DNA of 45,416 nucleotides, the filler included, from Jimgerdemannia flammicorona (taxonomy: Eukaryota), in the NCBI GenBank assembly GCA_003990765.1. It is 2 parts of 2 records of this genome, joined end to end, with 100 filler letters (N's around TTAATTAATTAA, not from the genome) between each part and the next. Parts side by side here need not be neighbours in the genome. Positions count along the whole stretch, not along the records: positions 1 to 22,659 come from RBNJ01001232.1; 1 more part is not named here. The stretch is one strand, 5' to 3'. Under the pieces are notes generated by a model, which was given only the letters and a program-made list of their open reading frames with translations, did no database searches and had not been told where the DNA came from. Shown here piece after piece: positions 5,239-33,237 of this stretch (its first letter is position 1; each line of letters opens with the position of its first letter). The translations under genes were made by a program, and so were the position numbers.

Positions 5239-5303
<65 letters not shown>

Positions 5304-5793: not shown

Positions 5794-5901
5794 ATCGTGA
5801 TATTTAAGCCACCTGATTTTTACAGTTCTAAGTGTTTGCCAAAATTGGAGCTAACCAAAGCACTTAGAACTGTAAAAATCAGGTGGCTTAAATATCACGA
5901 T
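5794..5901. repeat. Perfect 41-bp inverted repeat with a 26-nt loop
   Basis: ATCGTGATATTTAAGCCACCTGATTTTTACAGTTCTAAGTG (5794-5834) is the exact reverse complement of 5861-5901. Confidence 0.95.
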
Positions 5902-6451
5902 GTATAAATTGATTTAATAAAGGGACTTAAGGCTAACAAAATGTTTTAGAGCCTGAATAGCGACCAATTAATTGGATACCTCGTTTCTGGCGAATGCACG
6001 CGTATTCCAATGTTCGAATTTTCAAATCTCACTAAGTTTTATTATCAATGAATATTTACCTATTTATACAGCCTTTTTTCCATCGCTCTAACTAATACTA
6101 TGGCGCTACGTAAGTCGTCAAACCTCAGCGTTCAAGCGTTCAATATCATTGTTCCACAACGTTCGATTAGGACGCGTCAATTTCAAACACGCGGCCGAAA
6201 AGCCGGTTTGACGTGACCTATGCTATAGGCAACCTCATGGTTGTCGCATCTTCATTTGCTCCTATTTCTAAAGGGTTGTTATAACAATTAAGGGAGAAGG
6301 CGGAACTTATAGAATGACAAGTCCACAATCCTCGAAGCCGTCGACTACCCTTGAAAAGACCCATGTCAAGGTTTCACAGCCAAAAAAATCTTTACATAAA
6401 CAAACATTACCTCTGAAACAACGCCTCCCTCTAACCCAGCCTACTCACAAC

Positions 6452-6982: not shown

Positions 6983-8707
6983 ACATAGACATTTTTTATT
7001 ATGTGTACTATTGTTCCTAGTATTACGATCAGCTCTTTGTATTGTAAAAAAAAAAAAAAAAAAAAAAAACACGCCGATCGTATCTATTTTTGGAATGATA
7101 ACATTGGACACGATTCTGTCAATCTCCACTGATTGCTTTGTTGTATTCTATACGTACTGAGTTTAAATATATACCATAATAATATGTTGTGACAATGGCC
7201 AACATTACCTGTTTGCGCATTAAATAGCCCTGTTTCATTGTTGCTTTTAAGCAGGAAAATTTCCACAAGGCATCGCACGGCTAATTCTGTGAGTATTAAA
7301 TGCTGCCACGCAAACGGAAGCCATCATCCAGCGGAACCCTTGTTCAAAACGTTGTCGCGCATGAAACCAGGTGCATCAACGTTTTGGCGCTCCGCTCGCA
7401 AAAGCGGACTATCGCAGGCGTCCCCGTCACCGCAAAATGGTATTTATTGGTCAAAGAACAAATTACAAATACAGGAAAAGAAACTTCATACTGTCGAATC
7501 GATGAAAGATAGATGATGCACATGGTTATTTAAACATTCCTGTTTTGGACTCGCGTGTTTGTGAAACGTTATGGAGCTTAAGGGTAATCGCCAGTTTTAT
7601 TAGCTTACGAAACACTCCTGATTTCAGGATCAAAATAAACATCAATATGCTAGTGCCAAAATTAGTGCCTCACAATCACGACTAGCCAGTCGTCGCGGCT
7701 TCATCTCATCGAATTGGCCAAATTCTCACTTAAGAGACGCGTCAGGATAATGAGCGACCTCGAGATCACGTACCAATGCGAATGGAGGTTTTGGTGTCAA
7801 CTTGGGATAGTCAGGTTTGAAACTGCAAAAGTTCATAAAAGGAAGTGGTGCGGTACATTGCACATGTTTACTGTAAAAGCAGTGTGCTATGGGTCGTCCA
7901 CATGCAAACTTCCTAGCCAATAAAAAAGTTCGATAATGTAGAAATTCTGCGCTGCACGATCCGCCCTGCATGCCTGCACATGTGCTGATTTTTCTTGCAA
8001 GATAAGGTTGGGGTGGCATGACGATTCTCAATTTTGGCCGGTATTTTGTTTTCGTTCTCGCATTCATTTTTAATACCTCCCCCATCACAGTGTATATACA
8101 TACAAATGATGAGGTACTACTGAACGACTACAAATATAACCGATTGCGGCATCTAATCGAAATTTTATTATCATAGGCAACTTCGGGGTTGAGTTAGATG
8201 CTCTGCGATACGAAAACCGGTTGCAGACAAAGCGATAAGTTTAAAGAACACCACCGCCACATGTATTACAGGCAGGACCGTGTATTGAATGTGGTCTATA
8301 TGGAAGTGGAAAAAGAATAATAATTAAAGTTAATTGTCATCCTTCGAATAATAATCGTCTCGCTGTTAATCATCATTATCCGACCCAATCCAAATACAAT
8401 GCGAACCAAACTCGACCCGGCTGCAAACTGGGTTTTATGCAAAATATTCCTGAATAGCCAACTAGACCATCCAATCACAGAAAAATTCTAGAAAACACAA
8501 ACACAGTAAAATATCGTTAAATGCATAGCAATTACCCTACCACAGTGAAGCGTTCCTCTGAAAAGGACAAAGAAAACAACGGGGTGTACTTATGGAGCAT
8601 TTCCGGCAGGCCTATAATGTGGTCGTTCGGCGGGTTCTTTGGAATCTCGGCGATAGAGGAAATCTTGGTTCGACGTTGCAGTAAGGTCTATAGGGGTCGG
8701 CATCGGG

Positions 8708-8760
8708 AGAGGGAACCTCGGCGGTGGAGGGAACCTCGGCGGTGGAGGAAATCTCGGCGG
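8708..8760. repeat. 18-bp tandem repeat x3
   Basis: GAGGGAACCTCGGCGGTG units; the third copy is diverged. Confidence 0.85.
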
Positions 8761-9140
8761 ACGGATTGCGGATGGATTTTGGTGGTACATCCCTGCAGTA
8801 GCGTTTATATAAGGTGGTCATAGGGTGCGATGGGAAACTCGGAAATGGAAACTCGGCAGAAGGGAATCTCGGCTGCCTGGAAAAACAAAACCCGTGAGTT
8901 TGTGTACTCCGAACCCTTGCCGTGCATTCTCATTCTGGAAGTTTTCTTGTACGTTATCTTTCCAGCGCTGACGATTTGATGTCCTTGATACGTTAGCTAC
9001 TGACAATTGCTAATTGCACTTACGTCACTCGGTTACCACCGCCCCATTATTCACGACCTCCACGACCTCAAAACACGTTATTACGTTGGATGAGTGGATC
9101 AACATTGCTGTTGGTTTTCTCACAATTTAATAAAACCTAG

Positions 9141-9336: not shown

Positions 9337-11189
9337 CACTTAGTAGCTAAAGAAACACCTCTCTAAGACTGTACACTACTCTACACCAAGATATTGCAAA
9401 TAACAAATTAAGAAGTTAGTATAAGTATGCTAAATACAGCAGATGCAGATACCCCTAAAATAGGTATGATGATGGTCATAGTCTCCATGGTAAGCATAAA
9501 CATAGCTAAGAGGTCAATTCCAATCTTTGGCAGCAAGGATTACACCATTTGGGCATTCTATATAAGTAATCTTCTAAAAGAATATAGTTTAGTAAAGTAT
9601 ACAAAACTATAAATATAGATTTAAGATTATAATATTATAAACAATTACTAAATATTATACAAGATCATATTCATGTTGTCAAATTTGCAAATAAAGTATA
9701 TAATGCATATAATAATTGCTCACAAAGTATAGGAGACTCTATATAATTATTATATATATATATTTATATTAAATTAGTTTTATCTAAAATTTCAACTATT
9801 TAATTTATAAATTAAGTCTAAGAGAGTATCTACAAATATGCTGATCATATTGATAATCTGATGAATTAAGTAAATTCTCTAAGTATGTCAGTAGAGTATA
9901 TAGGTAATGAAGATAAAGTTTTAATCTTTATATATAAGAAAATTTTCTGAGATATATAATATCATAGTAGTAGCTATATACAAGAGTAAAAAACTTAGAG
10001 AGTATACCTATATGATAACAAGTCTTATAAATGAGAAGATATATTAAGAAAACAGTAATAATAATAATAATAAAGTATTCTATAGATTATATGGATGTGA
10101 TAAGAAGTATTAATAAGATTAAAAATACAAATCTAAGTTTAATAGAAACTGCTATTACTATAGTAAGTATAGATATATATAGAATGACTACTATTATAAG
10201 AATAAGGAGAATGATGAAAATAAGTATAGAGGTCAGTATTAATAATATAAGAGTAAAGAATTGAGAGAATGATAAAGAGCAATATAATATAAATATTACT
10301 AAAACTAATAATAACTAGAATAGAGGCAAATTTTTTATAAGTAATATATATTGAATATCTAAAGAAGATATCTATATCTATGCCTAAGCTATATATTTTT
10401 AAGCTAGTGAAAAATAATAATATCAATATAAGTAAAGTATATATCAATATAGCTGATAATATATAACAATATATAGCTTATAGATTTAGATTCTATATAA
10501 TATATATATAATAACTAATTGAGAATAGTTGTCTATATATAAGTTCTTTAAGTATCTAGTATCAATTAAGTTAGATAATTATTATATTATATATATATAT
10601 TTAAAGAAGAGAAAATATCAGAATATATCTCTATAAAAATATTATAAAGCCTACTGATACTTTTCAGAATATATTATATACTCTAAAGATAAGAAAGAAC
10701 CTCTTCTCAATTGAAAAAATAATAATCTATAGTAATAAAAAAATATATATATATCTAAAGAGAACAACTATATATAGTTTAAAAAATAATAAGAAGATTA
10801 TAATAGTATTGAAATGAGATAATCTTTATATGATTAATAGTATACTAAAGAGTATAAAAGTCTCTGTATATATGACAACTATATCTAATGTATTTAATAC
10901 ATAATATTAATAATTAGAATATATAGACAAATTAAGTCTAAAAAGAATAATCAGAAATAATTTAGTGAGTAGATTACTGATATATATATATTTGATAATA
11001 ACTTCTATAAGAACTATATAGCAAATAAAGTATTCCAACAACTATTTCAGAAATAGATAAAATATATATCTGATATACTTGATTTAATCTATATAGATAT
11101 ATATATATAGTTTGATATATACTACTTCTTATGATAGAAAGAGATATTTCATTATATTTATCAACAATTATATATATAAAGTATATACT

Positions 11190-14100
11190 ATCTTTCTCCA
11201 CTACTACTCATATAACACAAACTTTGAAGTATACTTTTGACCAATTTATTGAAGAAAGATACTAAGGTTATGGCAACTAATAAGTAAGCAGACATATATA
11301 CTAGGTTGGGTGGACCTGGGGCCTTCAACTGGCAATATGTCAGATAAGGATATGGACTTGGGATGGGGTCTTTTGGTGGTCTGAGTGGACAGGATAGCTT
11401 GGGTAGTAGAAGCAGCAATGGTGGAGGGACTGGAGGGCAGAAAGAGAGGAGCTTTGCAGACATGCTGAAGGCTGGAGGTTGGCCAGTAGGAGCTTATGGT
11501 GGGTAGGCAGAAGGGAAGAGAAAGTAGAAAGGAGGAGGAGTTGGAGGTGCTGAACCTCTGCCAGCAGGAGGAAGGGCTAGTGGAGTAGCTGATAGGAGTA
11601 GGGGTAGGACTGCTGATGGTGGTGTGACTGGGAATCTGGAAAAAAATCCAGATGTAACAGTTGATAGAAAGGCTGGACAGATGGGCTCAAAGCAGAAGAG
11701 AGAACTGGCTGATGATGTGACAGGGCTGGCAGTGGTACTGTTATTCAAGAAGTCAATCTTGAAGTTCATGGCAACCTTGTGCTTCTGGAACTTGGCTGTG
11801 ATGGCAAGAATAGTTCTGGGGATTATCTCAGAGCAAGTGGCTAGAGCTATCTTGGTGAAATTCCTGAAGAGACTAGAGAGAGTTGAAGTGGGTTTTGAGG
11901 AGGTGGGTCTACTGGAGGAAGTGTTGAAATCTGAAGTGGCTGTTGGTGAGGTGGTAATCTCTATAGTATAGTGTTTGAGGTGGAACCCCAGAGTGGTTCA
12001 GCTACTGGTGAAAGAGGTGTCTACAGTGATGAAGGTTGAGACTAGGAGGAGGGTAGAGGAGGTGATGGCAGAGTATGGTGATGTAGTCAATATTGGTTTC
12101 CAGATGTAGGAGGGGACTACTTTCAGGACAGGAGATGTGGATATTAGGATTAGACTAACTGAGAGAGAGGTCATGGGGAAGACAAGTGACTGGCCTTCAG
12201 TGATGATGTGGGGGACTTTTATCTGTAAGATATCGAGGGTGAAAGGGAGTGAAGAGGAGGAGAAGGACTTGTTGGAGGCTTTAGAGGAGCTGAGTGGAGT
12301 AGTAAAGCAGAGGACAAAGGCCTGGAAGCTATATATAGAGTCAATACATTTAGAGATTATAGGTGAGAAATATATTCGCACTGACAAGAGGTAGTGGGAG
12401 AGAGCTCAAGGGTGCAAAAAGCAGAGAGAGCTGCTGGCAAGTATGGGAGGAGGGGCAAAGGTGAATTCTGGAGGCCCTGAGAAGTCTGGGGGTATAGAGG
12501 TGAGTGTCTGGGCTAGTAAGAGAGAAGGAAATACAGAGGAGAGCCTAAATGGAGCTGAGAAAATGATGCACAAAGACCCATTTGCTAATGGTATATTTGA
12601 GGTCTGAGAGCCAGTCTTAGAAGACACTCTCTCTCTGATCAGGTGAGACCCTGCTGCAAGGAGTCAGGTAGCTAAGAATGAGCTGATGCAGGGCACTCAG
12701 CAGGTACACTTTGGAGTTCCTAATATGGCAAAAGGAGGATAGATGGTGGCAGTTGGTGAGGAAGAGCTGGTGGATGTCCCAGAGGAAGAGTGGAATGAGG
12801 CTACAAGTATAGAGACAGATACCACAATACTGGATACAGGAAGACTGGGGACATCAGGAGAGAAGGAGGTGGGAAACCTACTGTAGATGAGCCAAGTGAT
12901 AGATAACTTCGCAGTTGAGGAATTAGGGGAAATGGATCTGAGAGTGATGAGTGAGGAGCATTGGGCATGGATTCTACATAGAGATGGAGTGGTGAAGGCA
13001 CTGAAGGCAGAGGTACTTGCTATTTTCCTAGAGAAGAAGGAATATGAGGTTAATGAGGAGAAGAAGGCTGAGCTGGCAGTTGTTGCTGGTGAGCAGGCTG
13101 CCTACTGTTGGGCAGAGTGGCATGGTTTGCAACTCTGATAGGAGGTATGCCTGGAGTATTGTGAGGACTTTGAGGAAAAAGAGAATGGGGAGTTGGCTGA
13201 GCTTCTGATTAGGCTGGAGGCAAAGACAACTGAAGAGAAGGAACTGACTGCTGAATATAACTTGGACTTGACACAGAAGAGGTTGAATGTAGATTTATAG
13301 AGGATGGGCTTGATAATTAACATTATTTTTTATGAACAGTATATACAACTAATATTTTCTCTCTGAATGTAAATAGATTAAGGAGATCTGGGTAGTATAA
13401 GAATATTTTTACTTAGCTTAAGAGATTGGAGGCTGATCTCTTTCTACTGCAGGATGTGCAGTATGAGGATAAAGAGAATCAGGCAGAGTGGACTAGAGAA
13501 TGGGAAGAAGCTATGACTTGGATTAGCAAAGTAGTAATTCTGGTGAGGAGGAATAGAGGAGATTTGGGTGGAATCAGGAGCTGGGGGGACTGTTTGGTCT
13601 GGGGAGAATGGTATTGACCTGGGTGAGAGCCAGTGAGAGTAGGCTCTTGCTACTGTCCTGCAGCTAGGGGTGAGCAGATTGTATGGATTAGAGGTCTTTT
13701 GGAGGAAGGTATTCTCTTAGAGGAAAGAGTGGATGTTCTGGGAGGTGACTTTAATATGGTGCAGAATCTTAGGTTGGATAGGACTGATAGAGGGAGGAGT
13801 GTGGGTGAGAGGAGTGGTGGTCTGGATGCTTGAGAGGAGGTAGAGACCCTTTGCTCCTTAGGAGATATGGGCAGATTATAGTGGGGAGAGAAGAGGGTCT
13901 ATACATACTAGGTGAATAGACTGGGTATGAGGATAGACTGGATTCTGATAGCTGAATGCTGGGGCATAGATGTCTGGAAGACTCTGGAGATGGAGTAGTG
14001 CCCATGGTCTGATCACTAGGGGCTATTAGGGCAGAGGCAGTTTGGGGAGAGTGGAGATGGATCTAGACATTGGCACCTTAACTCCTCTCTGCTGGCTGAG

Positions 14101-17075
14101 AAAGTATTGTGAGACCTGTGGGTTGAGGACATCCAAGTAAAGATTGCCAACTAGATACATGAGAGTTCATCGGTGAGTATCCAGTGGATGAAGTTGAAAG
14201 AAGCTGTGAGGGTTTACTAGAGAGGAGCAGGTAGGGATGCTGGGAGGTAGCAAAGAAAAAAAGTATAGTATACTTTAGATCAGTTAATTAGATTACAGAT
14301 GGAATAGACAGATTTGATATCTTCTGGAGAGGTGGATGATTGGAGGTTGGAGTATGCAAAATTAGAGGTGGTGAAGTTGTAACAGAGAGGAGGAGGAGAC
14401 ATATATAAAAGGAATAGTAGCTAGGCTGCAGTGGTAGGGGCTTGAGGAGGGGGAGAGGCCTACTCAGTACTTGTCAAGACTCCTCCAGACTAGGAGGGTG
14501 TAGCATTGATGGGATGGGGTCCTTGATGCCAAAGAAGAAATAGTGTATAGTATATAACAGATCTTGAGAGTACTGAAGGAGAGATAGAGGGGTCTGTGGA
14601 GTGAAGAGGAAGGGGGTGCAGATGAAGAGGCAATTGAAGACATGCTGGAGGATTGGAAACTGCTGCAAGTAGAGGGCCTTAGTGACTTGATCCTATCAGT
14701 CCAGGAGGAGATCCAGAGAGTCCTTGCAGCAACTAAGCTTAGGACAGCTCCAAGAGAGGATGGATTACCTTGGGACTTTTGGAAGAAGATGGCAAAGGTC
14801 TCTGGAGTATTGAGAGAGATGGCAGCCCTCTGTGACCATGTTCTTCTGAAGGGTGAGTGGGTTGGAGAGCAGGACTTGGGGTTGGTGGTATTGTTGTACA
14901 AAGACAAGAGGAGGAGGGAGGACTGGAAGAGCTGGAGACTGATTATACTTCTGGATATAGACAGGAAGATGGTGACTAAGGTAATTGTTGTAAGGCTACA
15001 GAAGGTTGCCCAACAGGTACTAGGTGAGGAGCAGTGGAGTTTTGTAAGAGGCAGACTTATTAGAGATAGGACAGCCTGAGTTCATAGTATTATTGAAGAG
15101 GTACAGGCTTGTGGATTGAATAGAAGACTAGTCTTTTTGGACCAAGAGAAGGCCTATGACCACATTCAGTGAGTGTGGCTGGGCAAGGTGCTGGATAGAA
15201 TTAGTGTTCCCCCATAATTTTAAGCTTCTATGTTGAGTCTATTGGAGGGCAGTAGGGCAGCACTGATGTGTAATAGTCACCAAGGTCTGGTATTTCCCTT
15301 GGGAAGAGGAGTTTCTCAGGGGGATCTACTGTCTTCTATTCTTTATGCTCTTTCATTAGAACCTTTGATAAATAGGATACAATAGAAGATAGTAGGACTT
15401 TCTATATATGGTATGGTGTAGAAGGTGGGGGTCTTTGCAGATGATATGGTAGTTGGACTTGACTCAGTGATAGATGTTGAGGTTCTTAAGGAGATAGTGG
15501 AATGGTATAAGGTATAATCTGGAATAAAACTCAACTAGCATAAGTGTGAGATAATGGTGCTGGGGAATGGGCTAGTGGGAGGAGACATCATTGGAACAAT
15601 TGTCCCTACAGGAGAGGCAGTACAGTATCTGAGCATCTTTCTCTCTATATATGGTTCTGTCTTACTACAAGTATGGTGGGAGAGGAGAGTGGCCATTTGG
15701 GGGGAGGCTCTTAGAGGGTGGGGAGGTTGCCACATCTCCCTTACTGACCAGGTATCAATTCTGAATATCTACTGGCTCCCCAAGCTATGGTATATTGCTT
15801 ATTATTTGGACTTTCCAGCTTAGGTAGTGAAGAGACTAATGAAACTGGCTAGAGATTGAATTTGGGTAGAGAGATAGTCCCAGATCAGTTGGAACACTCT
15901 TGCAATACCAGTAGTTCAGAGTGGACTAGGCCTAGTGGATTTTTCTAAGAGGCTGTACTATCTGCAAGCTTGGTGATTGAAAAGAACTATTGAATTGCAG
16001 GGAGGAGGTTGGGTACCACTGATGCAGAAGGTGTGGGAGATGAGATTCTCCCTATGAGGATCCTTGAGAGATTTGCTATCTCTGGTGAGTCTGGATGAGA
16101 GCCAATGACTTTGGTATAAGGGCTTCTGATGGGGGGTGGTGGATGGAGCACACCAAATAGGTCTGCACTGATGAAGCAATGAGAGAGAGATGCTGTGGGA
16201 TCCAGCTATGTAGTGGTGGGACAGACTACTTCTAGGGAGTATGCTACTTGCTGAGTTTAGTATTAGTGATGGAGTAGAGTATCAGCAGAGACTTGGTTAG
16301 GATCTTTGGCCAAGTAGTTGGCAGGCTGTGAGGATTGGTGAGGAGTAGAACTGGGCAGGAGTCTGATCATAGAGTGCTAAGGTGCAGAGGTGGCTTCCTC
16401 CCAAGTTCTAGGTAGTATAGTGGTGAATGCTGTGGAGGAATGTCATATTGAATTTCTATACTAGACATCTGGTGGAGGGTGGACAATTAGATTGTGAGGA
16501 GTGCTACAATGTCGGGCAAGTTGGGGGATTTGTGTAGATACCAAAATATTGGCTGGGAGAGTATAAGGTTATGGAGGACTTTTGGATAGCAGTAGAGGAC
16601 TAGCTAGGTGTGAAGAAGAGGCCAGATGGAGAGAGAGGCTGCTGGGAGGATTTGAAATCTCAGTTAGTGGGTGGTGTGGGCAATGGATGACTCATGGTAG
16701 GGTGGGTTTTAGCTATGTATATGGGTAGGGCTGGCTGGATATTGGCTCTTTGTTTTTGAGGAGAGGCAATAGATAGGTATATAAGAAAAGTTATTAAGAT
16801 GAGAGGGGTTGATGGAAGATTTGCTGACAGGGTGGTGGGTTGGCTGGGGTCTCCAGAGTGGGCAATATCACTATCTGGTAGAAGGGATCTGTGAACAGAG
16901 TGGTGGACAGATGGGAATGATAAATGACAAAGTAGTCTTTCATTGAGAGAGAGTAGGGGGGAGAGAAGAGACCCCTAGGAGGATCAGATAGGAGTGAGCA
17001 CAGTGTATTTTATAGAGGATAGATGGGTGTATTAATAAAGGAAAGAGTCTGAGTAACTATAAAAAAAAAAAAAAA
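11190..17075 (+). mobile_element. Full-length L1/Tx1-clade LINE, copy A (defective)
   Basis: 19-bp TSD TATATATAAAGTATATACT at 11171-11189 and 17076-17094; A15 tail. ORF1 relic; ORF2 with APE (FLLQDV, GGDFN, RIDWIL, WSDH) and RT (APREDGLPWDFWK, LDQEKAYD, QGDLLS, FADD). Many stops. Confidence 0.95.
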
Positions 17076-18659
17076 TATATATAAAGTATATACTTTTTAA
17101 TAGCAAAAAGTAAGGTCTTGGAGAAATTCAAAGAGTTTAAAGTAATTATAGAGAATGAAACAGAATATAAAATATATACTATATATTTAGATAATAAATA
17201 TAAATATATCAATAGTATATTCAAGCAGTATCTGAGAAAATATAATATATACTATCAAATAACAGCTTTATATATATTCTAGTAGAATGGTATAGCTAAG
17301 TAATTTAACTATACAGTTATAGAAATAATATGTATGATAATTAATATAGCTAAACTATTATATTCTTATTAGGCTGAGACAATCAATATAGTAATATATA
17401 TACAATCAGTATATATTTCAAGTATTGAGCAAGAAATCTAATGATAATAATAAGTAATCTAAGAATAATTATAATCTCACTTCTGAAGAATTATAGAGTA
17501 GAGTCAAGCCTAATGTATTATATCTATATATATTCAGATATAAGGTCTATATTCTAGAGAAAGAAGAAAATCAGTATAAATTTGAGCCTAAGACTAATGA
17601 GTATATATTCTTTAAACATAATAGAAAATTGTATTGTGGAATCTATATAAATATTATATAATAATCTCATATAATATACAGTTTAACAAAAAAAGAAATA
17701 ATAAGAAGATTTATATAAATATATCTATTTTGATCTTTACTTTAATATTTATATTCTATCAGTATAATATCTGATACCAATCTCTCTAATAAAGTAAAAT
17801 TATTTTCAATCACTATACATATCTAAGCCAAAGTTATCTGAGTCAAGGATAATAGAGATTAAAAATAGTAAGACTTTTGATAATAATGAAGAGTTTATCA
17901 AAGATAAGAAAAAGCCAAAGTATAAGTCTAGAAATGAGACTTATTTCAATTTAGAAAATTATTAGAATATGTAGATAATAATATAAGAATCATATAAACT
18001 ATGCTAAGATATACAAATATATATTTATTATAACTTCTGGTAAGTCAAGTATATATAATAAAGTAATAACTTCCTCTAATAATAAGAGATAGAAGTAAAT
18101 AATAAATAAAGAGTATATTTTACTTATTAAAAATGACAAATAAAATTTAGTACCCTTCTGACCAATCAATAAGCTATAGAATTATTGGGTTTATAAAATC
18201 AAGTATAAGAGTAATAGAAGTATAGAGTAATTTAAACCTCATTTTATTGCTAAGAATTATTTGCAAGATTATGGTATAAACTATAATGAGATATTTTTAC
18301 TAGTATTTAAGCTTACTTTACTTAAAATACTTCTTATAATCAGTATTATATATAATCTAGAAATCTACCAGATAAATATAAAGATAGTTTTTCTCAATAG
18401 TGATATAGATATAGAACTATATATTCATCAGCCACAAGAATATAAATTATATAATAGCCAGAACAACAATCTCATATATATACTATATAAAGAATTATAT
18501 GGCATTAAGCAAGCAACTTGTCTGTGGAATAGAAAAATCAATAAATAACTTTTTAACAATAGCTTTATATACTATAAAGTAGATAACTATATATATATAT
18601 TTAATACTATACTAATAGAGTAGCTTATAGGTAAATATGTAATATAATTATCATTATAA

Positions 18660-19143
18660 GTACATATCTCTTGGGGGTCTGCCCACCAGGGCCTATAGTG
18701 GGAAAAAGGTGGAGTAATCTTCAGCAGAGGCTGGTAGGAGGGGTTGAAGATGATTGATTAACTATTGGGTGGATACTTGCTATTTGGATTAGGCTTGCCA
18801 GATATTGGCTATATATATTTGAAGATAGATGGCAGTTGGTACTTAGATTATAAGTTACCAGATAGAAGTGATTGATAATGGACCTATTGAATGGCTGGTA
18901 GAAGAGGTGGAGACCTGGTGGGGGGTCTTATAGAAGACTGGTAGAAAAAAATTTATAGATAGAGTAGTGAGAGGATTGGGATAGCTAAGGGAATGGTAAT
19001 TTTTCAGGAGAGAGAGAGGAGAGAGAGAGAGAGGCTCCTTGTAAGATTGGGTGAGGGGTGGGATTGTATTAGTATAATATAGATTAGATAGTAATAAAGT
19101 AGAAGTTTGAATAACTATATAAAAAAAATAAAAAAAAAAAAAA
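18660..19143 (+). mobile_element. 5'-truncated LINE inserted in the copia RT
   Basis: G-rich LINE 3' end with AATAAA and an A tail (~19120-19143). Degenerate TSD (ATTATCATTATA / ATTATTATTGTA). The copia RT resumes after it. Confidence 0.75.
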
Positions 19144-19576
19144 TTATTATTATTATTGTAATAAAAAGTAAGCTTAATAGAGTCAAAGAAGTCCTATATA
19201 AGAAATTCAAGATAACTGATATAGGTGATATATTCTTTCTTTTAGAGATATCTATTATATAATAGAAATATATATACCATATATTTCTCACAGTTAATAT
19301 ATATCTAAGCCATCCTAGAATACTTAATATATATAAGTAAATATAAGTCTGTTAATACTCTTATAGAAATATCTGTAAAGTTAAGAAAGTCTGAGACTGA
19401 TAATAATAAAAATTATACTAATATTTCTTATTGGTAAGTAATTGAGTTCCTTATATATCTCATACTAGAAATAATACCTAATATCTTATATACTATAAAT
19501 AAAGTAGTATAGTATTTCTTCCGCTATAATTACATATTTGTATTAGAGTATTATTAAGAAGATTTTCAGATATATT

Positions 19577-20002
19577 TAGTACTCTCAATGAATTAAATTG
19601 AATCAAATTAAACTCAAATTCAATTTAATTCAAAAACTTTGAATTGAATTAAGGCTTAATTCAATTTAATTCAAATCAAATTAAGGTCCAATTCAATTTG
19701 AATTTCAATTCAATCCTAAATTTTTAAAATTCAATAACTTGACAGAAAAATGTCTAAATTTAATAATCTTTATTGTACTAGATTTGCCTTATCAAAGCAA
19801 ATCTAACAAGCTAAAATTCATCTAATTTGAATATATTTTCATTAAGTGATTATATTTCAAAGTTTAACTTTCAATTTCAAATTGAATTAGATCTCAATTT
19901 GATTTGAACAATTTGAATTGGATTCCAATTTGAATTGAAAAATCTCTAATTTAATTTGATTTGAATTACCCTCAATTTGATTTGATTTGTTTGAAAGTAC
20001 TA
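19577..20002. mobile_element. Non-autonomous hAT-type MITE, family 2 (old, mutated)
   Basis: TAGTACTCTC...GAAAGTACTA termini; 8-bp TSD GATATATT (19569-19576, 20003-20010). Subterminal ATTCAA/TTGAAT arrays and a central TAGATTTGC-N9-GCAAATCTA palindrome. Confidence 0.88.
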
Positions 20003-20210
20003 GATATATTAAAGATATAGTATACTATATACTCAATCTCAGTAAATTGAATAGAAGCAATGATAATAAGGATAAGAATAATAATATATAATTATCTAGT
20101 ATATATGATGCTAACTGGGCTAGAGACTTAGATAATTACCAATCTACAACTGAGTACTTCTTCTAATTAAACAATAAAGAGATTGTATATATCTTAGCAA
20201 ATATATATAT

Positions 20211-21722
20211 TGTCACGTAGTGGTTGCTGAGTCCTTCAAATACACCAGATTCTCTTCAAGGTATATCTCTTAGACTAACTCAAGTTTGTTATAAGCAAGT
20301 TCTTATTGGAGTGCCTTCTCAAGGTCTTATAGTTCTCAAACTTCTTATCTTTAACTGTCTTGTTATCTCTTAGATTGCTTGCAAGGAAGTGTGTGTATTG
20401 CACTGAGAGGAACTGACTTTATTTCAGAGGAAATAAGAGGGGTATTTATACAAAATATAATTCAATGGTTGCTAAGATATAAAGCTAAATATAAATTCCA
20501 ATAACTAAAACTACTAAGTTCCAAGGCTGGTATTATTTAGTGTCACATCAAAATGCCGGTGCTGGAACAATTTCGCGTCACCTCAGAATACCAGTGCTGG
20601 CATTATCTAGTGTTACATGAGAATACCGGTGCTGGCATTATCTGGTGTAACAAAGAACTTAGAGCAGAAAGTTCAGGACCATGGGGGCTTCATCATCATC
20701 ATCATCATCATCATCACTGAAGGAGATGAGATCTGCGAATTCGTCGTTTTCGCGTGCTTCGCGTATGTCGATGTCACGCGGGATGACGTCATCGCCGATG
20801 ACGTCATCACGTTCGGCGGGGAAATCGGGGACAAGATCTGGAGCTCTCCAGTCTATGAGGTTCTCTTCCACAAAATAGGGGACAAATGTGGGGTCTTGGG
20901 GAGATCTAACCCGGATGCTTGGGCCTTGGAATACTGAGATCAATCCTTGCAGGAACTGGTCTGGGTTGTCCTGAAGGATAGGATACCAGAAGTCTTCTAC
21001 TTCTTCACTGTTGAGGGTGATAGTGGACTGGGCTTCTGTAGCCACCCTGGCTTCTAGCACATTGATATGGTGGGATGACAGGTCTCTGAAGTCTGAGACT
21101 CTAACATACTCCAAGTTGGGGATTGACCATGGTGCATGCCTGAAGATCTGATGGATCTTCTTTGCTGTCCTTGCTTCTCGTAGGTCTATGGGAGTGGCAT
21201 CTTATAGCTCTTGAGGGCTGGCCTGTGGGAACTCCCGGCAGAGGAGGTTTCCTATTTCATACTCCTGCCACATTTGGAGGCATTCAGTGGCGATAGTGAT
21301 CCTTGTTTCCATTTCACAGCAGTAGAGGATGAAGTGATAGGGGTCTGCAGTACCCAGGTTGACACTAGGAGTCCTTCTTGAGCAGGTCCCCATGGCTCTT
21401 CTGATGTCTTGGAACATCCTTTCTTCAACCGAGATACCTTAGTAGTTCCTTGACCTTGAGGTTTGGCAGGCAGCAGGCATTTCATTTGTGGTAAGTCTTT
21501 GAGCTATTTTGGGATTGGTGGTTCTTGTTGGTTGCTGCTACTGCGGTTCCTTAATCCTTCTTTTATATTCTTCAGGATGCTTGTGCTGTGGTCACAATGA
21601 CTCACAGTTAGTCATTATTGCTCATCTCGTATGCTATATGATCTTCTTGTACTTTGATCTGGTGGCTTGCAAGGAAAGACTGTCTCCTATGCTAATGTCA
21701 TCATTCTGGGGTCACTGTTACA
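20211..21722 (-). mobile_element. 1.5-kb TG..CA solo-LTR-like element carrying an internal gene
   Basis: Minus-strand termini TGTAAC...GTGACA with ATAT on both flanks. It interrupts the copia RNase H (IS*QIY|K*SSVVISSIQVEYQ). Minus-strand TATA (~20440-20452), AATAAA (~20418-20423) and ~35-bp repeats (20550-20650). Confidence 0.75.
20659..21480 (-). pseudogene. LTR-borne ORF, ~274 codons, two internal TAA stops, acidic C-terminal tail
   Basis: One frame: MPAACQTSRSRNY*GISVEERMFQDIRRAM..WQEYEIGNLL..QEL*DATPIDLREARTAKKIHQIFRHAPWSIPNLEYVRVSDFRDLS..SDDDDDDDDEAPMVLNFLL*. It joins track ORFs 21202-21417 and 20659-21114. Both stops are explicable as CAA>TAA. TATAAAA lies upstream at ~21561-21567. 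Confidence 0.7.
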
Positions 21723-21870
21723 ATATATAAGTAGAGCTCAGTAGTAATATCATCTATACAAGTAGAGTATCAAGTATTATCTATAGTAATAAAGAAAGCC
21801 ATTTGGCTATACCAGCTATTAAAAAAACTTAGCCTTGATTAAGAGTACTCTATACTTATGTATAATATAA

Positions 21871-21963
21871 ATTCAGTAATTCAAATCAAGATTCAAATTT
21901 GATAATTTGAATTGATCATGTGATGAATTTAAACTAATTCAAATTGACTCATTCAGAGTACTA
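21871..21963. mobile_element. Orphan end of the TAGTGCTC hAT MITE family
   Basis: ATTGACTCATTCAGAGTACTA matches ATTGACTCGTTCGGAGCACTA (end of the 25307 copy) with 3 transitions. It is fused to the truncated copia. Confidence 0.75.
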
Positions 21964-22380
21964 CCTCTCTACTTTCTTATATTAAATACAACCTAACTAT
22001 TAATAACTACAACCCTCTTACTACTTTTTATATAAATTCTCTTTACTAAATAGTGACAGTAACCACTCTGAGGGCTCTACCCCCTCTACTAGTTAGACAC
22101 AATATCTATCACCAATCTCTTCTACTGTATTATCCTCTTTTCTAATTCTATCTATCTCTCTTTTCAAATATATATAGCTAATGTCCAGCCAACTCTACTT
22201 ATACTACCAAAGTTCACTCAACAGTAAGTTACTCATTACCAATATACTCCACCAATTATGATTTCAAGTCCTCTTAATGACCCCCCTCTCTACTCTCTCA
22301 CTTCTTTATCTCTAAATAACTACCAACTCTCATCTAGAAGTTCTCAAGAACCTCATACTCACTTAGCTAATATTGACCAA
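21964..22380 (-). mobile_element. Degraded LINE ORF2 C-terminal fragment
   Basis: CT-rich and aligns by eye with 29470-29850. Confidence 0.6.
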
Positions 22381-22659
22381 GAACTCTATTCATTATAGCA
22401 GAATAAAGTACATTGATATACAACACCACTATATAAGAGAATGCATGAAGAATATAACTATATGCTTAGAATACATTCTCACAGAGTATATAATTATAGA
22501 TTTGCTCTCTCAGAATCTAAGTTTAAGTAATATATTAAAGAAATAAGTCTTACAGTAAACTATATACTAATAATAAAACTATATGCCAGCAATAGATACT
22601 TATGGGATATTTCATAACAAAAAGGAAGCAGAAAAACAATGCATCTTTCTTTTTTTTTT

Positions 22660-22759
22660 NNNNNNNNNNNNNNNNNNNNNNNNNNNNNNNNNNNNNNNNN
22701 NNNTTAATTAATTAANNNNNNNNNNNNNNNNNNNNNNNNNNNNNNNNNNNNNNNNNNNN
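22660..22759. other. Assembly gap with artificial linker
   Basis: 44 N + TTAATTAATTAA (22704-22715) + 44 N. Confidence 0.97.
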
Positions 22760-25306
22760 TCTAGTGGGCCCTCCCCCCCACCCTCTCATGATAAAAGACC
22801 ACCATACCATTTACTATTACCACTCACCCACTACTCTGTTCACAGATTCCTTCTACTAGATAGCAATGTCACCTACCCTGGGGACCCCACCCAACCCACC
22901 ACTCTGTTAGAAAATCACCCACTAACCCCTCCTATCTTAAAAACTTCTCCTGAACTCCCATTCTCTATCCCTTCTCAAATACAAAGAGCCAATGTCCAGC
23001 CAGCCCTACCCAGATAGCTAAAATCTGCCCTATAGTGAGCCATCCATTTCACACCACCCACAAGTCTAGCTTTTAAGTTCTTCCAATGCCCTTGCTCTCC
23101 ATTCAGCCTCTGCTCTACACCTAGCCAATCTTCCACCACTATCCAAAAGTCCCCCAGAACCTTACATTCTTCTAGCCAATATTCTAACATCTATACAAAA
23201 CCCTCAACCTGCTCCACATCATAGCACTCCTCACAATCTAAATGGCCACCATCTACCAGATGACCAGCAAGGAAATTCAATATAATATTCCTCTACAGCA
23301 TCCTCCACTACACTACCCAGAACTTGGGAGGAAGCCATCTCCACATCTCAGCACTCTATGACCAGACTCCTGCCCAGTCCCACTTCTTACCAATCCTCAC
23401 TATCTGCCAACTACTTGGCCAAATATACTGACCAAGACTCTGCTGACACTCTAATCCATCACTAATATCAAACTCAGCAAGTAGAGCCCCTGCCAGAAGC
23501 AATCTGTTCTATCTCTATATCTCCTGGCCCCACAGCATCTTTCCCTCATTGCTCCTCCAATACAGGTCAATGCAGTATACTCCATCCACCACCCCCAACC
23601 AGAAGCCTGTAAACTGCAGCAATTGGCTTCCATCTAGGCCCACCAGAGACAACAAATCACCTAATGACCCCCTAGGAGAGAATCTCATCTCCAACACCTT
23701 CTGTATCAGTAGCACCCAGCCCCCTCCTTGCAGTTCAACAGCCCTTTTCAACCACCAAGCTTGCAGGCAGTACAGTCTCTTAGGAAAATCCACAAGGCCA
23801 AGTCCTCCCCTATGTAAGAGTATCCCAACTGATCTGGGGTCTCCTCTCTGCCCAAATCTGCTCTCTAGCCAGTTTCATCAGTCTCTTCACCATCCAAGCT
23901 AGAAAGTCTAAGTAATAGGCCATATACTAAAGCTTGGGGAATCAGTAAACATTCAGAATTGACACCTGAGCTGCTAGAGAGATGTGTTGACCTCCCCAGC
24001 CTCAAAGAGCCTCTTCCCACATAGCCACCTTCCTTTCCCATCACACTTATAGCAAGACAGATCCATATACAGAGAGGAAGATGCCCAGATACCACACCAC
24101 CTCTTCTGTAGGGACAATTGTTCCAATGATGTCCCCTCCCACTAGCCCATTCTCTAACACTATTGTCTCACACTTATATCAGTTGAGTTTTATCCCAGAG
24201 TGTATCTCATACCATTCCACTATCTCCTTAAGTACCTCAACATCTTTTACTAAATTAAGTCTATCTACCATATCATCTGCAAAGGCCCCCACCTTCTATA
24301 CTACACCATAAATAGCAAGTCCTACCACCTTCTGTCATATTCTATCTATCAAAAGTTCCAGTGAAAGAGCATAAAGGATAAGAGACAGCAGGTCTCCCTG
24401 AGGAACTCTCCTTCCCAAGAGAAATGCCAGACCTCAGCAGCTATTATATAACAGTGCAGCCCTACTACCCTCCAATAGATTCACTATAGAAGCTCAAAAT
24501 CATAGAGGAATACAAATTCTATCCAGCATCTTACTCAGCCAAACCTGCCAAACATGGTCATAGGCCTTCTCCTGATCCAAAAAGACCAGTCTTCCATCCA
24601 ATCCATAAGCTTGTACCCCTTCAATGATACCATGCATCCAGGCAGTCCCATCTCTAATAAGCCTGCCCTCAATAAAGCCCCACTACTCCTTACTCAGTAC
24701 CTGTTGGGCAACCTTCTGTAGTCTTGCAACAATCTCCTTAGTCACCATCTTCCTGTCTATATCCAGAAGCATGATCAGTCTCCAGTTCTTCTAGTCTTCT
24801 CTCCTCTCTTTATCTTTGAACAATAAGGCCACCAGCTCCAAATCCTGCTCTCTAACCCACTCACCATTCAGAAGTACATGATTACAGAGAGCTGCCATCT
24901 CTCCTAACACCCCAGGGACCTTTGCCATCTTCTTCCAAAAGTCCAAAGGTAATCCATCCTCTCCTGGTGTTGTCTCAAGCTTAGTAGCCATAAGGACTCT
25001 CTGGATCTCCTCTTGGACTAGTAGGATCAAATCACCAAGCTCTTCTACCTGTAGTGTTTCCCACTCCTTCAGCATATCTCCAATCACCTCTTCATCAGCA
25101 CTCCCTTTCGCCTCACTCCACAGACCCCTCTATCTCTCCTTCAGTACCCCCAAAATCTGTTGTGTGCCATGCACCATTTCCCCCTCTGCATCAAGGACTC
25201 CATCCCATCAATATTGCATTCTCCTAGCTTGGAGGAGTCTAGACAAGTATCTGGTAGACCACTCTCCCTCCTCAAGCCCCTACCACCTTAGTCTGGCAGC
25301 CATTTC

Positions 25307-25819
25307 TAGTGCTCCTAACGAGTCAATTTAATCCGGATGGATTCGAATCGGATTCGAATCAACCATTGTTTTGATTTCCAAATTAGACAATTAAATGTTT
25401 ACATCAATAACTTGATGAATAATCATCTAAATTTGATGATCTTGGTGTCATTTGAAAGCCCTTAATAAGGCCTATCTAATGATACCAAGAACATTGAAAT
25501 CGGATCATGCGTTGCTGAGTTATGAAGGAAACCGTCTGAATCGCCGATTTTGGAAATTCTTTGATTTGCCGATTTTGGAAATTTCGTCAAATGGAACATT
25601 TTCCTTAATATCTCGGCACCACGTAATCCGATTTTAATGTTCTTGGTATCATTAGAAAGGCCTTATTAAGGGCTTTCAAATGACACCAAGATCATCAAAT
25701 TTGGATAATTATTCATCAAGTTATTGATGTATACATTTAATTGTCTAATTTGGAAATCAAAACAATGGTTGATTCGAATCCGATTCGAATCCATCCGGAT
25801 TGACTCGTTCGGAGCACTA
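25307..25819. mobile_element. Fold-back hAT-type MITE, family 1 copy 1 (513 bp)
   Basis: TAGTGCTCC...GGAGCACTA termini, ~200-bp inverted arms, 8-bp TSD GCCATTTC (25299-25306, 25820-25827). CpGs are retained. Confidence 0.95.
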
Positions 25820-27718
25820 GCCATTTCTTTCATATGAATCTCCTCCTCCTTTCACAATATCTGTTGCAGCTCCACTATCTCTAATTTTGTCCATTCTAAC
25901 CTCCAATCCTCTACCTCTACAGAAGAAAGCAGATCAGCCCACTCCATCTGCAATCTCATCAGTCTATTAGAAGCACACCTCACTTGCTTCCTTCTCTACC
26001 ACTCAGCCTCCCTACCAGCTCTTCCCCAATAAACCCTCACAGCCTCCTTCAACCTCATCCAATGAATACCTACAGATAAACCCTTATATATCCAGATAGT
26101 AATCTTTGCCTGGATGTCCTCCACCCATGGGTCCTACAACCCCTTCTCAGCCAGCAGAGAGGAGTTAAAGTACTAATTTCCAGGTCCATCTCTACTCCCC
26201 CCAAACAGCCCCTGCCCTAATAGCCCCCAGTAATCTGACCATGGGCACTACTCTACCTCCAAAGTCCTCCAAATATCAACATCTCAATATTCAGCCATCC
26301 AGTATATATAGACCTTTATATTGCCCCACCTTTTTCTGCCCATATCCCCTAAGGAGCTAAGGTTCTCTATCTCCTCCCATGTATTCAGACCACTACTCCT
26401 CCTGCCTGCATCTCTCCCTCTATCAGTTCTATCTAACTGTGGATCTCTCACTATATTAAAGTCACCTTCCAGAATATCTACTCCTTTCTCTAAAAGAATG
26501 CCCTCTTCCAACAGATCCCTAATCTACTCAATTCTCTCACCCCTAACCACTGGGCAGTAGTAGGAGCCAACTCTCACTGATTCTCACTCAGGTCAATGCT
26601 ATTCTCTTCAGACCAAATGGTCACCCCAGCTCCTGATTCCACCCAAATCTCCTCTATCCTTCCTCACCAGAATTGCCATCTTACCAATTCAAGCAGTAAC
26701 TCCACCCCATTCTCTAGTCTACTCCACCTAATCTTTCTCACCCTCATACTATATATTCTGCAGTAAAAAGAGATCAGCCTCCAATCTCTTAAGCTAAGTG
26801 AAAATGTTCTTATGCCATCCAGATCTCTGTAACTCATTCACATTCAGAGAGAAAATGTTAGTTGTACTATTTATAAGGAATAATGTTGATTATCAATTGC
26901 ATTCTCTACAAATCTGCATTCAACTCTTTCTGTGTCAAGTTCAAGTTATGTTTAGCAGCCAGTGTCTTCTCTTCAGCTGTCTGTGCCTCCAGCTCAACCA
27001 GAAGCTCAGCCATATCTCCATTCTCTTTTTCCTCAAAGTCCTCACAATACTCCAAGCATGCCTCCTGCCAGAGTTGCAAATCATGATACTCTGTCCAACA
27101 GTAGGCTGCTTGCTCACTAGCAAAGACTGCCAGTTCAGCCTTCCTCTCTTTATCAATCTCATATCTCTTCTTCTCCAGGAGAATCACAAGTATCTCTGCC
27201 TTCAGTATCCCTACCACCCTATCTCTATGCAGAATCTACACCCAGTGCTTCTCAGATATCACATGCAGGTCTACTTCCCCCAACTTCTCAGCTGCAAAGT
27301 TATCTATCATCTTGCTCATCCACAGCAGGCTCCCTACCTCCTTCCCTCCTGGTATCCCTGGTCTTCCTGCATCCAGTATTATGGTATCTGCCCCTATACT
27401 GGCAGTCTCATTCCACCCCTCCTCTGGGACATCTACCAACTCATCCTTGCCAATGGCCACCACCTGTCCACCTTTTGTAACATCTGGAACCCCAAAGTAT
27501 ACTCGCTGGGCACCCTTCATCAACACATCCTCTGCCACCTGACCCCTTGCAGCTGGACCCTGCCAGACTAGAGGGGGAGTGTCATCCAAGACTGGTTCCC
27601 AGACTTCAAATGTGCCATTGGCAAATGGGTCCATGTGTGGTGTCTTCCCAGCCCCCTCCAGGCCCTCCACCACATCCCCTCCACCCTTACTAGCCCAGAC
27701 ACTCACCTCCACACCCTC

Positions 27719-30183: not shown

Positions 30184-30217
<34 letters not shown>

Positions 30218-30960: not shown

Positions 30961-31417
30961 AATATATAGAATTAATTACTGGGATATATTAAAGTAGTAA
31001 ATGATAGAAGAGGGATTGGAGATATATAAGTAGCTTATCTTAGAGTAGGTTCTTATAGTTTGGATCAGTCTGGTGAGCCACTAGTAGGTAGTATTAGAGG
31101 ATGGCCAGATGATAACTATGGGGGAAGAAGGTGGTAAGATAGGAATAGTTGATGATAGATATATATTTTGTTTGGATAATAAATAGAGTTGAGCCCTAGT
31201 GGGGAGTAGTAATGGAAGCTAGTGGGGATTATTTATAGAAAGAGTAGAGAGAGAATTAGAGTGATTAAATCTGAGATAGTATTTAATAGAGTTAGAATAG
31301 GAGGTTTAGATAGAGGTAGATAGTGGCTACTAGTGTAATATGAGAATATAGAGCATATTTTAGATTATTAATAAATGGAGCTATAACCTATAGAAAAAAA
31401 AAAAAAAAAAAAAAAAA
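30961..31417 (+). mobile_element. Degraded LINE 3' fragment
   Basis: G-rich sequence, AATAAA, A24 tail at 31394-31417. Confidence 0.6.
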
Positions 31418-32039: not shown

Positions 32040-33237
32040 AGGTTGGAGGTTGATGTAGTTTGGCTTGAGCCTTTAGTTACTTTGTCAAAAAGCAATAAAA
32101 TGTTCTAAGATTTCTGTGGTCCTTGGCATTTAGTAGTATAACAGTCAATCTGGATATTTCAGTAGTTCCTCTGATCATATGGTGGTCAATTTGTATATCA
32201 GTTTCCTTATTGAGATAGTTCTCTAAGTATAGTAGCAATTTTGTATAATGGATGGTCTTTATATAATATGGCAATCTCCTTATATATAATGGTCTGGCAA
32301 TTTAGTGGTTTTCCTTATATGATTTCTACATGATGATTTCATATAGCATAACAATCTCTGTATAGTATGGTAGGTTCCTTATATATGACATTCTGACAAT
32401 TTGGCAGATAACTCGATTTGGTAAATAACTCAGTTTTGGTGCAGATACTTCTGAATTAGCAGCTTACTAGAAATAAAGGATAGTATAAACTCTTCTAAAT
32501 CAGCTTACTGGGAATAGGTAAATAACTTAGATAGTACAGATCCTTTCTATATTAGCAGGTTTCTTTGGGAATAATAACTGATAGTGGATTCTTTCTGAAT
32601 CAGCAGCTTACTGGAAAAGATTATTTTCTTAGCAAAGTTATATCAAAGACTGGCTTTATTTACATGAATGAATCACTGTAAAGTTGTGTCTAGTAGACTG
32701 ACTTATGGCAAGGTTTCTTAAGGCTCTCAGGGAATATAGATAACTTAGAATCAGCAGCTTATTCCTTAAGCAGCAGATTTCTCTTCAAAAGATAGCAAAG
32801 TTCTTCTTTAAACTTTAGTGACAAATCTTCAGGCTTATCTGGTAAGCAATCCAAGGCTTTATATTAGTAAGTAGACCAGAGTAGGAATAAGGGGACTAAT
32901 GCTTAATCTTTAGAGGCTTCTTTGGTTTGTACTTCAATTTAGACTAAGGTTTACTCACTCATATCTGTGGAGTATTTTATGTATTATGGTTGCTATCTGG
33001 TTGCTATCTGGTTGCTATCTGGTTGCTATCTGGATAATTATAGATTTACCACTTCTGGTAATATTTAGGTGTATCCTCAGAGCATGAGTGTGTCTACAGG
33101 ATATGAGTGTGTCCACAGGACATAAGTGTGTCTATAGGATATAAGTGTGTCTACAGAATATGAGTGCATTTACCAGATATAGGAGTATCTTTAGGATACA
33201 GATAAATAACCCTAATTTGGTATCTTGCCTAATTATA
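32040..33237 (-). mobile_element. LTR-like repeat family B, copy 2 (more mutated)
   Basis: Colinear with 27719-28750 (e.g. TTTAGTAGTATAACAGTCAATCTGGATA, TTCAGGCTTATCTGG, GCTTCTTTGGTTTGTA). Contains TGGTTGCTATC x4 and a 19-bp repeat x4.5 (33082-33170). The end ATTATA is read as a mutated ATTACA. Confidence 0.65.

Follow-up and report, generated by a model that had tools for sequence, protein, structure and literature searches.

In the genome of Jimgerdemannia flammicorona (assembly GCA_003990765.1), a decayed Ty1/copia retrotransposon is interrupted by a 1,512-bp element that we interpret as the solo long terminal repeat (LTR) of a high-copy LTR retrotransposon family. The element lies antisense to its host within a window of 45,416 nucleotides, the whole stretch of DNA analysed here, and carries on its sense strand an open reading frame (ORF) of its own. 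It occupies positions 20211..21722, and we base its assignment on steps in contig depth and on the sequences that adjoin its ends in other copies. The sense strand is the window minus strand; sense position 1 of the LTR is window position 21722 and the LTR ends at sense position 1512. The element starts with TGTCAC at 20211 and closes with TGTTACA at 21722, reading 5'-TGTAAC...GTGACA-3' on the sense strand. These ends form an imperfect 6-bp terminal inverted repeat, TGT(C/A)AC, with the TG..CA termini expected of an LTR. The G+C content is 0.45 within the element and 0.24-0.28 in the flanks.

The boundaries of the element are sharp and constant in public sequence data. We aligned Logan contigs of four public runs, two soil metagenomes (X1 and X2) and two coded organisms (X7 and X8), to positions 19900-22000; the 21 runs listed as containing element sequence, none of them on record as RNA, come from soil and rhizosphere metagenomes except for two coded organisms. 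The alignments comprise 2,165 (X1), 479 (X2), 257 (X7) and 56 (X8) contig pieces, and 344 of the 2,165 pieces in X1 are at least 99% alike. Depth is here a sum over contigs, from which copy number cannot be read. At the left end, the summed depth in X1 rises from 1.6 in bin 20113-20183 to 968-2586 in the next three bins; at the right end it drops from 608 in bin 21675-21745 to 10.9 in the next. The steps in X2, X7 and X8 coincide with these, giving the same boundaries in 4/4 runs, with a rise in round figures from 2-8 to 1000-2500, and contigs have loose ends exactly at 20210 and 21722. A second copy of the element is absent from the window: it belongs to none of the 16 direct and 25 inverted repeat families there, and blastn and tblastn comparisons returned self-matches only. 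Nor did we find terminal direct repeats inside the 1,512 bp. This rules out a terminal-repeat retrotransposon in miniature (TRIM) or an internal LTR pair, and the unit is therefore one LTR rather than a miniature element.

The interrupted host is a degraded, AT-rich copia pol on the plus strand, in agreement with the insertion site first proposed. Its left part extends over 17000..20210 and gives an RVT_2 match on the plus strand at 18261-18548 (E 7e-18); its right part, 21723..22700, continues an RNase H-like frame. The AT-rich left flank ends in ...ATATATAT and the right flank resumes with ATATATAAG. Translation gives ...YMMLTGLET.. for the left flank and SSVVISSIQVEYQVLS..AIWLYQLL for the right one, which we take to be decayed Ty1/copia RNase H motifs, while a Pfam search of both flank frames gave no match. 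A putative 4-bp target-site duplication, ATAT, lies at 20207..20210 and 21723..21726, although its position in a low-complexity AT run makes it weak. At 20210 a single base remains beyond the last full codon of the left frame, while 21723 is the first base of the right frame, so that excising the element together with 4-bp ATAT would restore the copia frame. In two contigs the copia flanks are joined directly, with no element between them (joints 20174->21727 and 20121->21746), which indicates that other copies of the host copia exist without the insertion.

The neighbours of the element in other copies point to its identity. Counts of loose ends refer to those listed, beside which there are 195 more. 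Among those listed, the left loose end (before 20210) has the same tail in eight X1 contigs (agreement 1) and one X2 contig; on the sense strand, ...GTGACA is followed by CT and then by TGGTGCCCATTGG..., in a longer reading TGGTGCCCATTGGCTGG. The right loose end (behind 21722) is represented among those listed by two X2 contigs and one X7 contig and reads ...AGGAGGAAGA immediately before TGTAAC on the sense strand, a tract of 10 purines. The other copies thus have a TGG... sequence resembling a primer-binding site (PBS) two bases past the ...CA end and a polypurine tract (PPT) at the TG end, as expected of an LTR. We roughly estimate at ~1e-4 the probability that a TGG start so near one end and a 10-purine run directly at the other would coincide by chance. 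Since both neighbours fit in one orientation only, we take the minus strand as the sense strand, and since they accompany constant boundaries, we read the unit as an LTR whose window copy is solo, as the first-pass annotation had claimed for all three points. The PBS-like 17-mer has two matches at 3 mismatches within the window (27446-27462 and 38393-38409), which lie inside copies of a long interspersed nuclear element (LINE) and were judged unrelated.

Some other dispersed repeat, for instance a small non-autonomous element with a gene of its own or part of a larger repeat, could adjoin constant sequences that merely resemble a PBS and a PPT. The shortness of the neighbours, at 15-30 nt, and the lack of any paired copy or gag-pol in what we saw are in keeping with such a repeat. 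However, the element has TG..CA ends with an inverted repeat, the 4-bp duplication restores the host frame, and the PBS and PPT fit only the orientation that also suits the ORF, the TATA boxes and the AATAAA signal; we regard a non-LTR origin as very improbable.

All internal features discussed next lie on the minus strand. Their order had been given as TATA, ORF, ~35-bp repeats, second TATA and AATAAA, and each member was located. Much of what follows relies on comparison with L001, a 1,345-bp LTR-internal contig that was the one relative recovered from 380 candidate stretches of metagenome contigs. Its protein is 62% identical; the frame that encodes it is intact over 323 codons, opens with MPA as in the window copy and has its extra length in the tail. 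The first sequence of L001 is GAATATAAAAG, and ACAAATGCCTGC is preserved at its start codon; its coding part aligns with the window copy throughout. Outside the ORF the alignment is limited to short blocks, and the non-coding sequence between them aligns poorly, with 63-68% identity over 81-104 nt.

The upstream TATA box, TATAAAAG (21560..21567, sense 156), is a candidate promoter of an LTR-internal mRNA and lies 76 bp before the ATG; the surrounding 11-mer GAATATAAAAG is identical in L001. About 37 bp farther upstream stands a TGAGTCA heptamer (21598..21604, sense 119), which we take to be of the AP-1/Gcn4 type, although what is observed is the position of the motif. The ORF starts at 21480 (sense 243), a start conserved in L001, and stops with TAA at 20661-20659 (sense 1062-1064). 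It is thus enclosed by the repeat, whose PPT-side end is 240 bp away and whose PBS-side end is 450 bp away. Two TGACGTCA octamers occur in its tail, at 20799-20806 and 20784-20791 (sense 917 and 932). Together with TGAGTCA they resemble sites for basic leucine zipper (bZIP) factors, and coding sequence could in this way double as an enhancer.

Between the ORF stop and the second TATA box lie three tandem units of 35-bp period (20521..20651, sense ~1072-1202), which are candidate enhancer-like U3 repeats. The second TATA box, TATAAATA (20443..20450, sense 1273), a candidate promoter of the genomic RNA, lies within TGTATAAATACCCCTC, the best-conserved non-coding block, of which 16/16 nt are identical in L001. 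The AATAAA polyadenylation signal (20418..20423, sense 1300) begins 27 bp after the start of TATAAATA, a distance of 26 bp in L001, and a contig of X8, a run that may be RNA, spans both motifs (20324-20523 and beyond) and so does not mark transcript ends. This spacing would place the genomic start and the poly(A) site close together and so suggests a short R region and a U5 of ~180 bp; the R and U5 regions would then occupy 20211..20417, ending in ...GTGACA and partly alignable to the end of L001. Other copies vary in this part of the element. Joints in X7 skip 35 bp, indicating that some copies have two instead of three 35-bp units, and one X8 contig has a 22-nt insertion behind 20506. Alternative sequences branch at 20509-20534, and the family thus varies over 20506-20594. 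A sigma-70 promoter scan was set aside as inapplicable to a eukaryote.

The arrangement could also be read with genomic transcription starting from the upstream TATA (~21535), which would put the ORF in a very long R region, as a first cistron encoded in the leader and again at the 3' end. The identity of TATAAAAG and its 11-mer context in L001 is consistent with this, as is the position downstream of the ORF of the sole poly(A) signal found. In contrast, the second TATA is the best-conserved non-coding block (16/16 nt) and keeps a fixed 26-27-bp spacing to AATAAA, as expected of a main promoter with a short R, and an R of ~1.1 kb would be exceptional. We therefore consider a leader-encoded ORF unlikely and retain the reading in which the ORF belongs to U3. 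A further possibility raised at the outset, an LTR limited to 20211-20652 (some 440 bp) with the rest a separate insertion, can be ruled out: depth steps occur only at 20211 and 21722, the PPT adjoins 21722, and L001 has the order TATA-ORF-TATA-AATAAA. The whole 1,512 bp is one unit.

The ORF (20659..21480, minus strand) comprises 273 codons plus a stop, a single frame as originally described although one codon shorter than the 274 then given. In the window copy it is inactivated by two in-frame TAA codons, at codon 14 (21439..21441) and codon 93 (21202..21204). At codon 93 most contigs have CAA, the depth of the A>G difference at 21204 being 675.2/701.6 in X1, 104.5/118.2 in X2, 34.3/34.3 in X7 and 838.1/838.1 in X8. 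P0004, a protein relative of 271 aa, has an uninterrupted frame with Q at each of the two stop sites, P0003 and P0005 have Q at the codon 93 site, and L001 has P at codon 14. The Q residues and the CAA codons bear out the proposed CAA>TAA origin of both stops, which to judge from the aligned sequences are CpA>TpA changes private to this copy or to a minority of copies. With two such stops and no element attached, the window copy is dead.

Its relatives are open. A word-indexed search of 5.8e9 proteins returned 350 candidates, six of which are relatives with 58-86% identity, 161-271 aa in length and with open frames. All six are on contigs of at most 1.6 kb, which we take as the size expected of collapsed repeats. 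A hidden Markov model (HMM) search of 1.84e9 (1.84 billion) cluster representatives matched five clusters and no more distant sequence, and longer or fused forms of the protein were absent among 2,424 candidates. Between the window ORF and L001, the Nei-Gojobori ratio of nonsynonymous to synonymous substitution (dN/dS) is 0.23 over the whole ORF (271 codons; dN 0.35, dS 1.49) and 0.16 over the N-terminus and core (210 codons). The open frames of the relatives and these ratios answer the question of whether dN/dS falls below one, set by the first-pass annotation, in favour of a real gene, and the substitution pattern shows purifying selection at the protein level during the history of the family. 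Differences between copies add a hint in the same direction: 24 of the 40 differences listed, beside which there are 228 more, fall in the ORF, and 12 are synonymous and 12 not, whereas synonymous sites make up ~21% of ORF sites. One of the 12 nonsynonymous differences is the stop-to-Q change and four come from a single X8 contig, and the rows are support-selected and non-independent.

These data bear on whether the ORF might be a passenger in a genuine LTR, that is a transduced fragment of a host or foreign gene, or a frame open by recent descent, with no role in the life cycle. The protein matches no known domain or fold, its family is tiny at five clusters, and the frame has stops in the window copy and presumably in others, all of which would suit a passenger. 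However, the relative L001 keeps 323 codons open at dS ~1.5 with dN/dS 0.16-0.23, the start codon and layout are conserved, and the searches of the 5.8e9 and the 1.84e9 sequences turned up no longer or host-like homologue, the relatives being confined to contigs of at most 1.6 kb. We judge a passenger ORF to be quite unlikely, and treat the ORF as a selected gene of the element.

Two further frames overlap the ORF. Over its tail, an antisense frame is open both in the window (20617-20937, plus strand, 106 aa) and in L001 (609-863, minus strand, 84 aa), with motifs in common, and is probably a by-product of acidic codon usage. A second ATG, 5 nt upstream of the ORF ATG, opens an overlapping frame of 77 codons (21252-21485, minus strand); L001 does not have this ATG, which is probably a private change of the window copy.

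The encoded protein gave no match to gag or pol. Pfam searches gave 0 families for the window protein (at E<=10), for P0004 and for the L001 protein, and a PDB sequence search with the ORF protein gave 0 matches. With these results, the open relatives and the lack of fused forms among the 2,424 candidates, the original description of a gene other than gag and pol is supported. The C-terminal tail (20662..20844, minus strand) is acidic and predicted to be disordered. It contains DLISF and LNF(L) motifs, and its coding sequence holds 18 of the element's 30 CpG dinucleotides and the two TGACGTCA octamers. In the window ORF the tail has 23 D/E against 4 K/R in 59 residues, and in the six alignment rows with a complete tail (P0001, P0003, P0004, P0005, P0007 and P0011) the corresponding numbers are 18-28 and 2-4. 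The DLI(S/T)F and LNF motifs are kept down to P0011, at 41% identity. In the closest relatives the first 59 residues have a basic composition, with 12 K/R and 5 D/E in P0004; the core is mildly acidic. A maximum Kyte-Doolittle mean of 0.74 over 19 residues shows that there is no hydrophobic segment, which argues against an env-like or Sag-like protein.

AlphaFold2 modelling of the full-length protein from an 11-sequence alignment gave a mean predicted local distance difference test (pLDDT) score of 54 and a predicted template modelling (pTM) score of 0.46. In this model residues 18-185 contain helices, residues 200-212 form a hairpin and the tail is disordered. The core alone reached pLDDT 67 and pTM 0.57. 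The structural check suggested by the first-pass annotation could thus be carried as far as models, while Foldseek gave no match above noise. For the full-length model the best E value was 1.8 against the PDB by Foldseek and 0.22 against BFVD, and the best Z score was 4.1 in the VIA wide search. The core model gave a best Foldseek E of 2.9 and a best VIA wide Z of 5.0, to a photosystem subunit (root-mean-square deviation 3.0, 72 residues aligned). In the ESM Atlas the best feature scores were 0.83 and 0.86 and the best template modelling (TM) score 0.56, below the thresholds of the tool. For helical models such as these, the fold-search scores are within noise. A comparison with gag and capsid domains and the zinc knuckle comes down to no Pfam match and to fold searches, on models of pLDDT 54 and 67, with a best Z of 5.0 or Foldseek E of 1.8. 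In comparison with transcriptional activators, the tail is acidic in the six rows and disordered in the model, and the fold searches recognised no DNA-binding fold. We infer a soluble acidic protein of ~270 aa whose N-terminus is somewhat basic and whose helical core is followed by a short beta-hairpin and an acidic tail without order.

The CpGs of the tail-coding region stand out against a background of decay. Eighteen of the 30 CpGs in the element lie in 20736-20826, and the ratio of observed to expected CpG (CpG o/e) is 1.42 in 20680-20860, whereas the copia flanks have 0.0-0.02 and the neighbouring LINEs 0.02-0.12, in line with the local CpG retention first remarked on. For the element as a whole the ratio is 0.40, which amid decayed repeats suggests a comparatively young element. 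Positions 1-9000 of the window have a ratio of 1.07, and the low values in the repeats therefore point to CpG decay targeted to repeats. Classic repeat-induced point mutation (RIP) is rejected as the local process, since the index (CpA+TpG)/(ApC+GpT) is 0.92-1.58 in repeats and thus not low, even though both stops of the ORF are CpA>TpA changes; what stands out is a repeat-specific loss of CpG, which looks like methylation-driven decay.

The window also contains several diverged LINE-type copies, 70-82% alike, at ~11000-17000 (plus strand), ~22700-27700 (minus strand) and ~33000-45416 (plus strand). They give an RVT_1 match and an Exo_endo_phos match of E 1.1e-3, below the Pfam cut-off, and their sense strands combine the low CpG ratio of 0.02-0.12 with an extreme GC skew of ~+0.3 to +0.57. 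The copia/LTR nest is enclosed by two of the copies in inverted orientation, as a large pair with arms of 1,495 nt (I1). Near-perfect hairpins of ~200 nt, 93-94% complementary and with loops of 64-68 nt, lie at equivalent places in two copies, at 25330-25531/25600-25801 (I11) and 41772-41955/42020-42203 (I13). A LINE 3' fragment is nested in the left part of the copia (~18650-19145) and ends in an A-rich run at 19121-19143; another A-rich run lies at 31395-31417, and tracts of ~60-70 T and ~30 T occupy 5241-5303 and 30187-30217.

Several observations weigh against reading the element as an LTR with a functional gene in U3. A full-length element with paired LTRs, gag-pol and target duplications was not recovered from the contig scans, in which 72 stretches of viral contigs searched by protein and 27 stretches of genome contigs contained no relative and the LTR-PBS junction pattern had 0 matches in viral contigs. 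The PBS and PPT calls rest on loose ends of 15-30 nt in short contigs; the PBS-like sequence has no matched primer tRNA, and the window contains 0 tRNA genes. The target duplication, as low-complexity ATAT in an AT run, may be due to chance, and both promoter assignments are motif-based. A dS of ~1.5 is near saturation and makes the dN/dS ratios approximate, although dN and dS themselves differ clearly, and the tail has a dN/dS of 0.68 (61 codons) on a gappy, uncertain alignment. Few contigs reach >=80% identity over the tail-coding stretch 20726-20822, where the X1 depth is 52 compared with >800 to either side, and a repeat filter accounts for 20681-20725 only; the stretch is therefore variable, either because most copies lost the CpGs or because the tail evolves fast. 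Finally, the structure models, whose confidence is low to middling, match nothing and lend no direct support to the proposed function.

On balance, we consider it probable that the element is a solo LTR inserted antisense into a decayed copia, and that the LTR of its family carries a gene in sense orientation within U3. The structural side of this reading, an accessory gene inside U3, is well supported by the sequence features: ~820 bp of a ~1.3-kb U3 would code for protein in sense orientation, downstream of the PPT and upstream of the main TATA. In a full-length element, the LTR gene would form the 3'-terminal cistron of the genomic transcript. It would also have its own upstream TATA, TATAAAAG, and may use the AATAAA of the LTR, in which case every LTR, solo copies included, would be a self-contained unit for an mRNA of ~1.1 kb. 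Our best guess is a product that works in trans and helps the element to be expressed or replicated. From the selection pattern, together with the basic N-terminus and a disordered acidic tail in which short motifs are conserved, we tentatively suggest a nuclear regulatory role in the expression of the element, most plausibly as an adaptor or activator; an RNA-export or anti-silencing factor would be an alternative. The transactivator or anti-silencing role put forward in the first-pass annotation has the acidic disordered tail as its sole basis. The first-pass annotation supposed that every solo LTR would spread the gene, whereas solo LTRs are dead ends that merely keep a gene copy.

Such an arrangement would matter for how solo LTRs are viewed. 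Extra genes of LTR retrotransposons are usually internal and are lost on recombination to a solo LTR, and a selected gene inside the LTR alters this picture, since each element then has two copies of it and solo LTRs retain one. If the reading is correct, gene dosage scales with LTR number, and solo LTRs, usually seen as inert promoters, are potential coding units. The ORF protein is an orphan; should it prove to be an activator, an export factor or an antagonist of silencing, it would offer a new tool and a new example of a retroelement set against host control.

The closest analogue in layout is the sag gene of mouse mammary tumour virus (MMTV), likewise a sense ORF in U3 upstream of the main promoter, with the U3/R border of our element placed by its motifs. 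The MMTV LTR, at ~1.3 kb, is also similar in length. Sag is a membrane glycoprotein of type II topology for which Pfam holds a model, whereas the ORF protein is acidic, has no hydrophobic segment and shows no sequence relationship to Sag (0 Pfam families at E<=10). The two-promoter logic may be shared, with P2 driving sag and P1 the genome in MMTV; the counterpart of the extra U3 promoter is here the conserved TATAAAAG motif. In MMTV the sag/naf ORF is contained in U3 and can be expressed from a second U3 promoter, P2, which lies farther upstream (PMC9412291). It is conceivable, though we think it rather doubtful, that the family independently reached the MMTV solution in full: a dual-promoter LTR, an accessory protein of new fold, and solo LTRs, each a potentially expressed helper gene, as a dispersed, deletion-resistant pool of an activator or anti-silencing adaptor that uses the DLISF and LNF motifs and serves active elements.

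Other retroviral accessory genes reach into U3 from outside. The nef gene of human and simian immunodeficiency viruses (HIV/SIV) and the bel/bet genes of foamy viruses are 3'-terminal, and some of these genes have a promoter of their own and encode acidic activation regions. They start in the internal region and only overlap U3, in contrast to the ORF described here, which lies wholly in the LTR.

Among LTR retrotransposons, a review assigns additional ORFs (aORFs) to the internal region and uses neither the phrase "within the LTR" nor "inside the LTR" (PMC7264820); the known cases are found either between pol and the 3' LTR or on the 5' side of gag (PMC7264820, PMC3485330). Retrosat2 ORF0 lies upstream of gag (PMC3485330), brtn of Botrytis Boty is an antisense aORF, as cited (10.1101/2021.04.13.439636, PMC7264820), and Cer1 of Caenorhabditis elegans depends on the extra protein CERV (PMC10309623). 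Like our ORF, these genes, together with the env-like and antisense aORFs of plants, encode extra family-specific proteins of regulatory or unassigned role that are present in most copies and have no outside homologues. They differ in their internal location, whereas the ORF lies entirely within the LTR. Cassandra TRIMs carry a 5S rRNA-like unit in each LTR (10.1101/2023.07.14.548913, PMC10886601), so that there, as proposed for our element, the LTR itself carries an independently promoted gene-like unit; that unit is an RNA polymerase III small-RNA module of plants, however, and not protein-coding. In the literature searched, in which subscription journals are thinly covered so that absence is weak evidence, no fungal or other non-retroviral LTR element is described with a protein gene contained entirely in its LTR. 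For the layout MMTV is a precedent; the protein family and the host group are new, and the element would match a complex retrovirus in its regulatory layout without being one.

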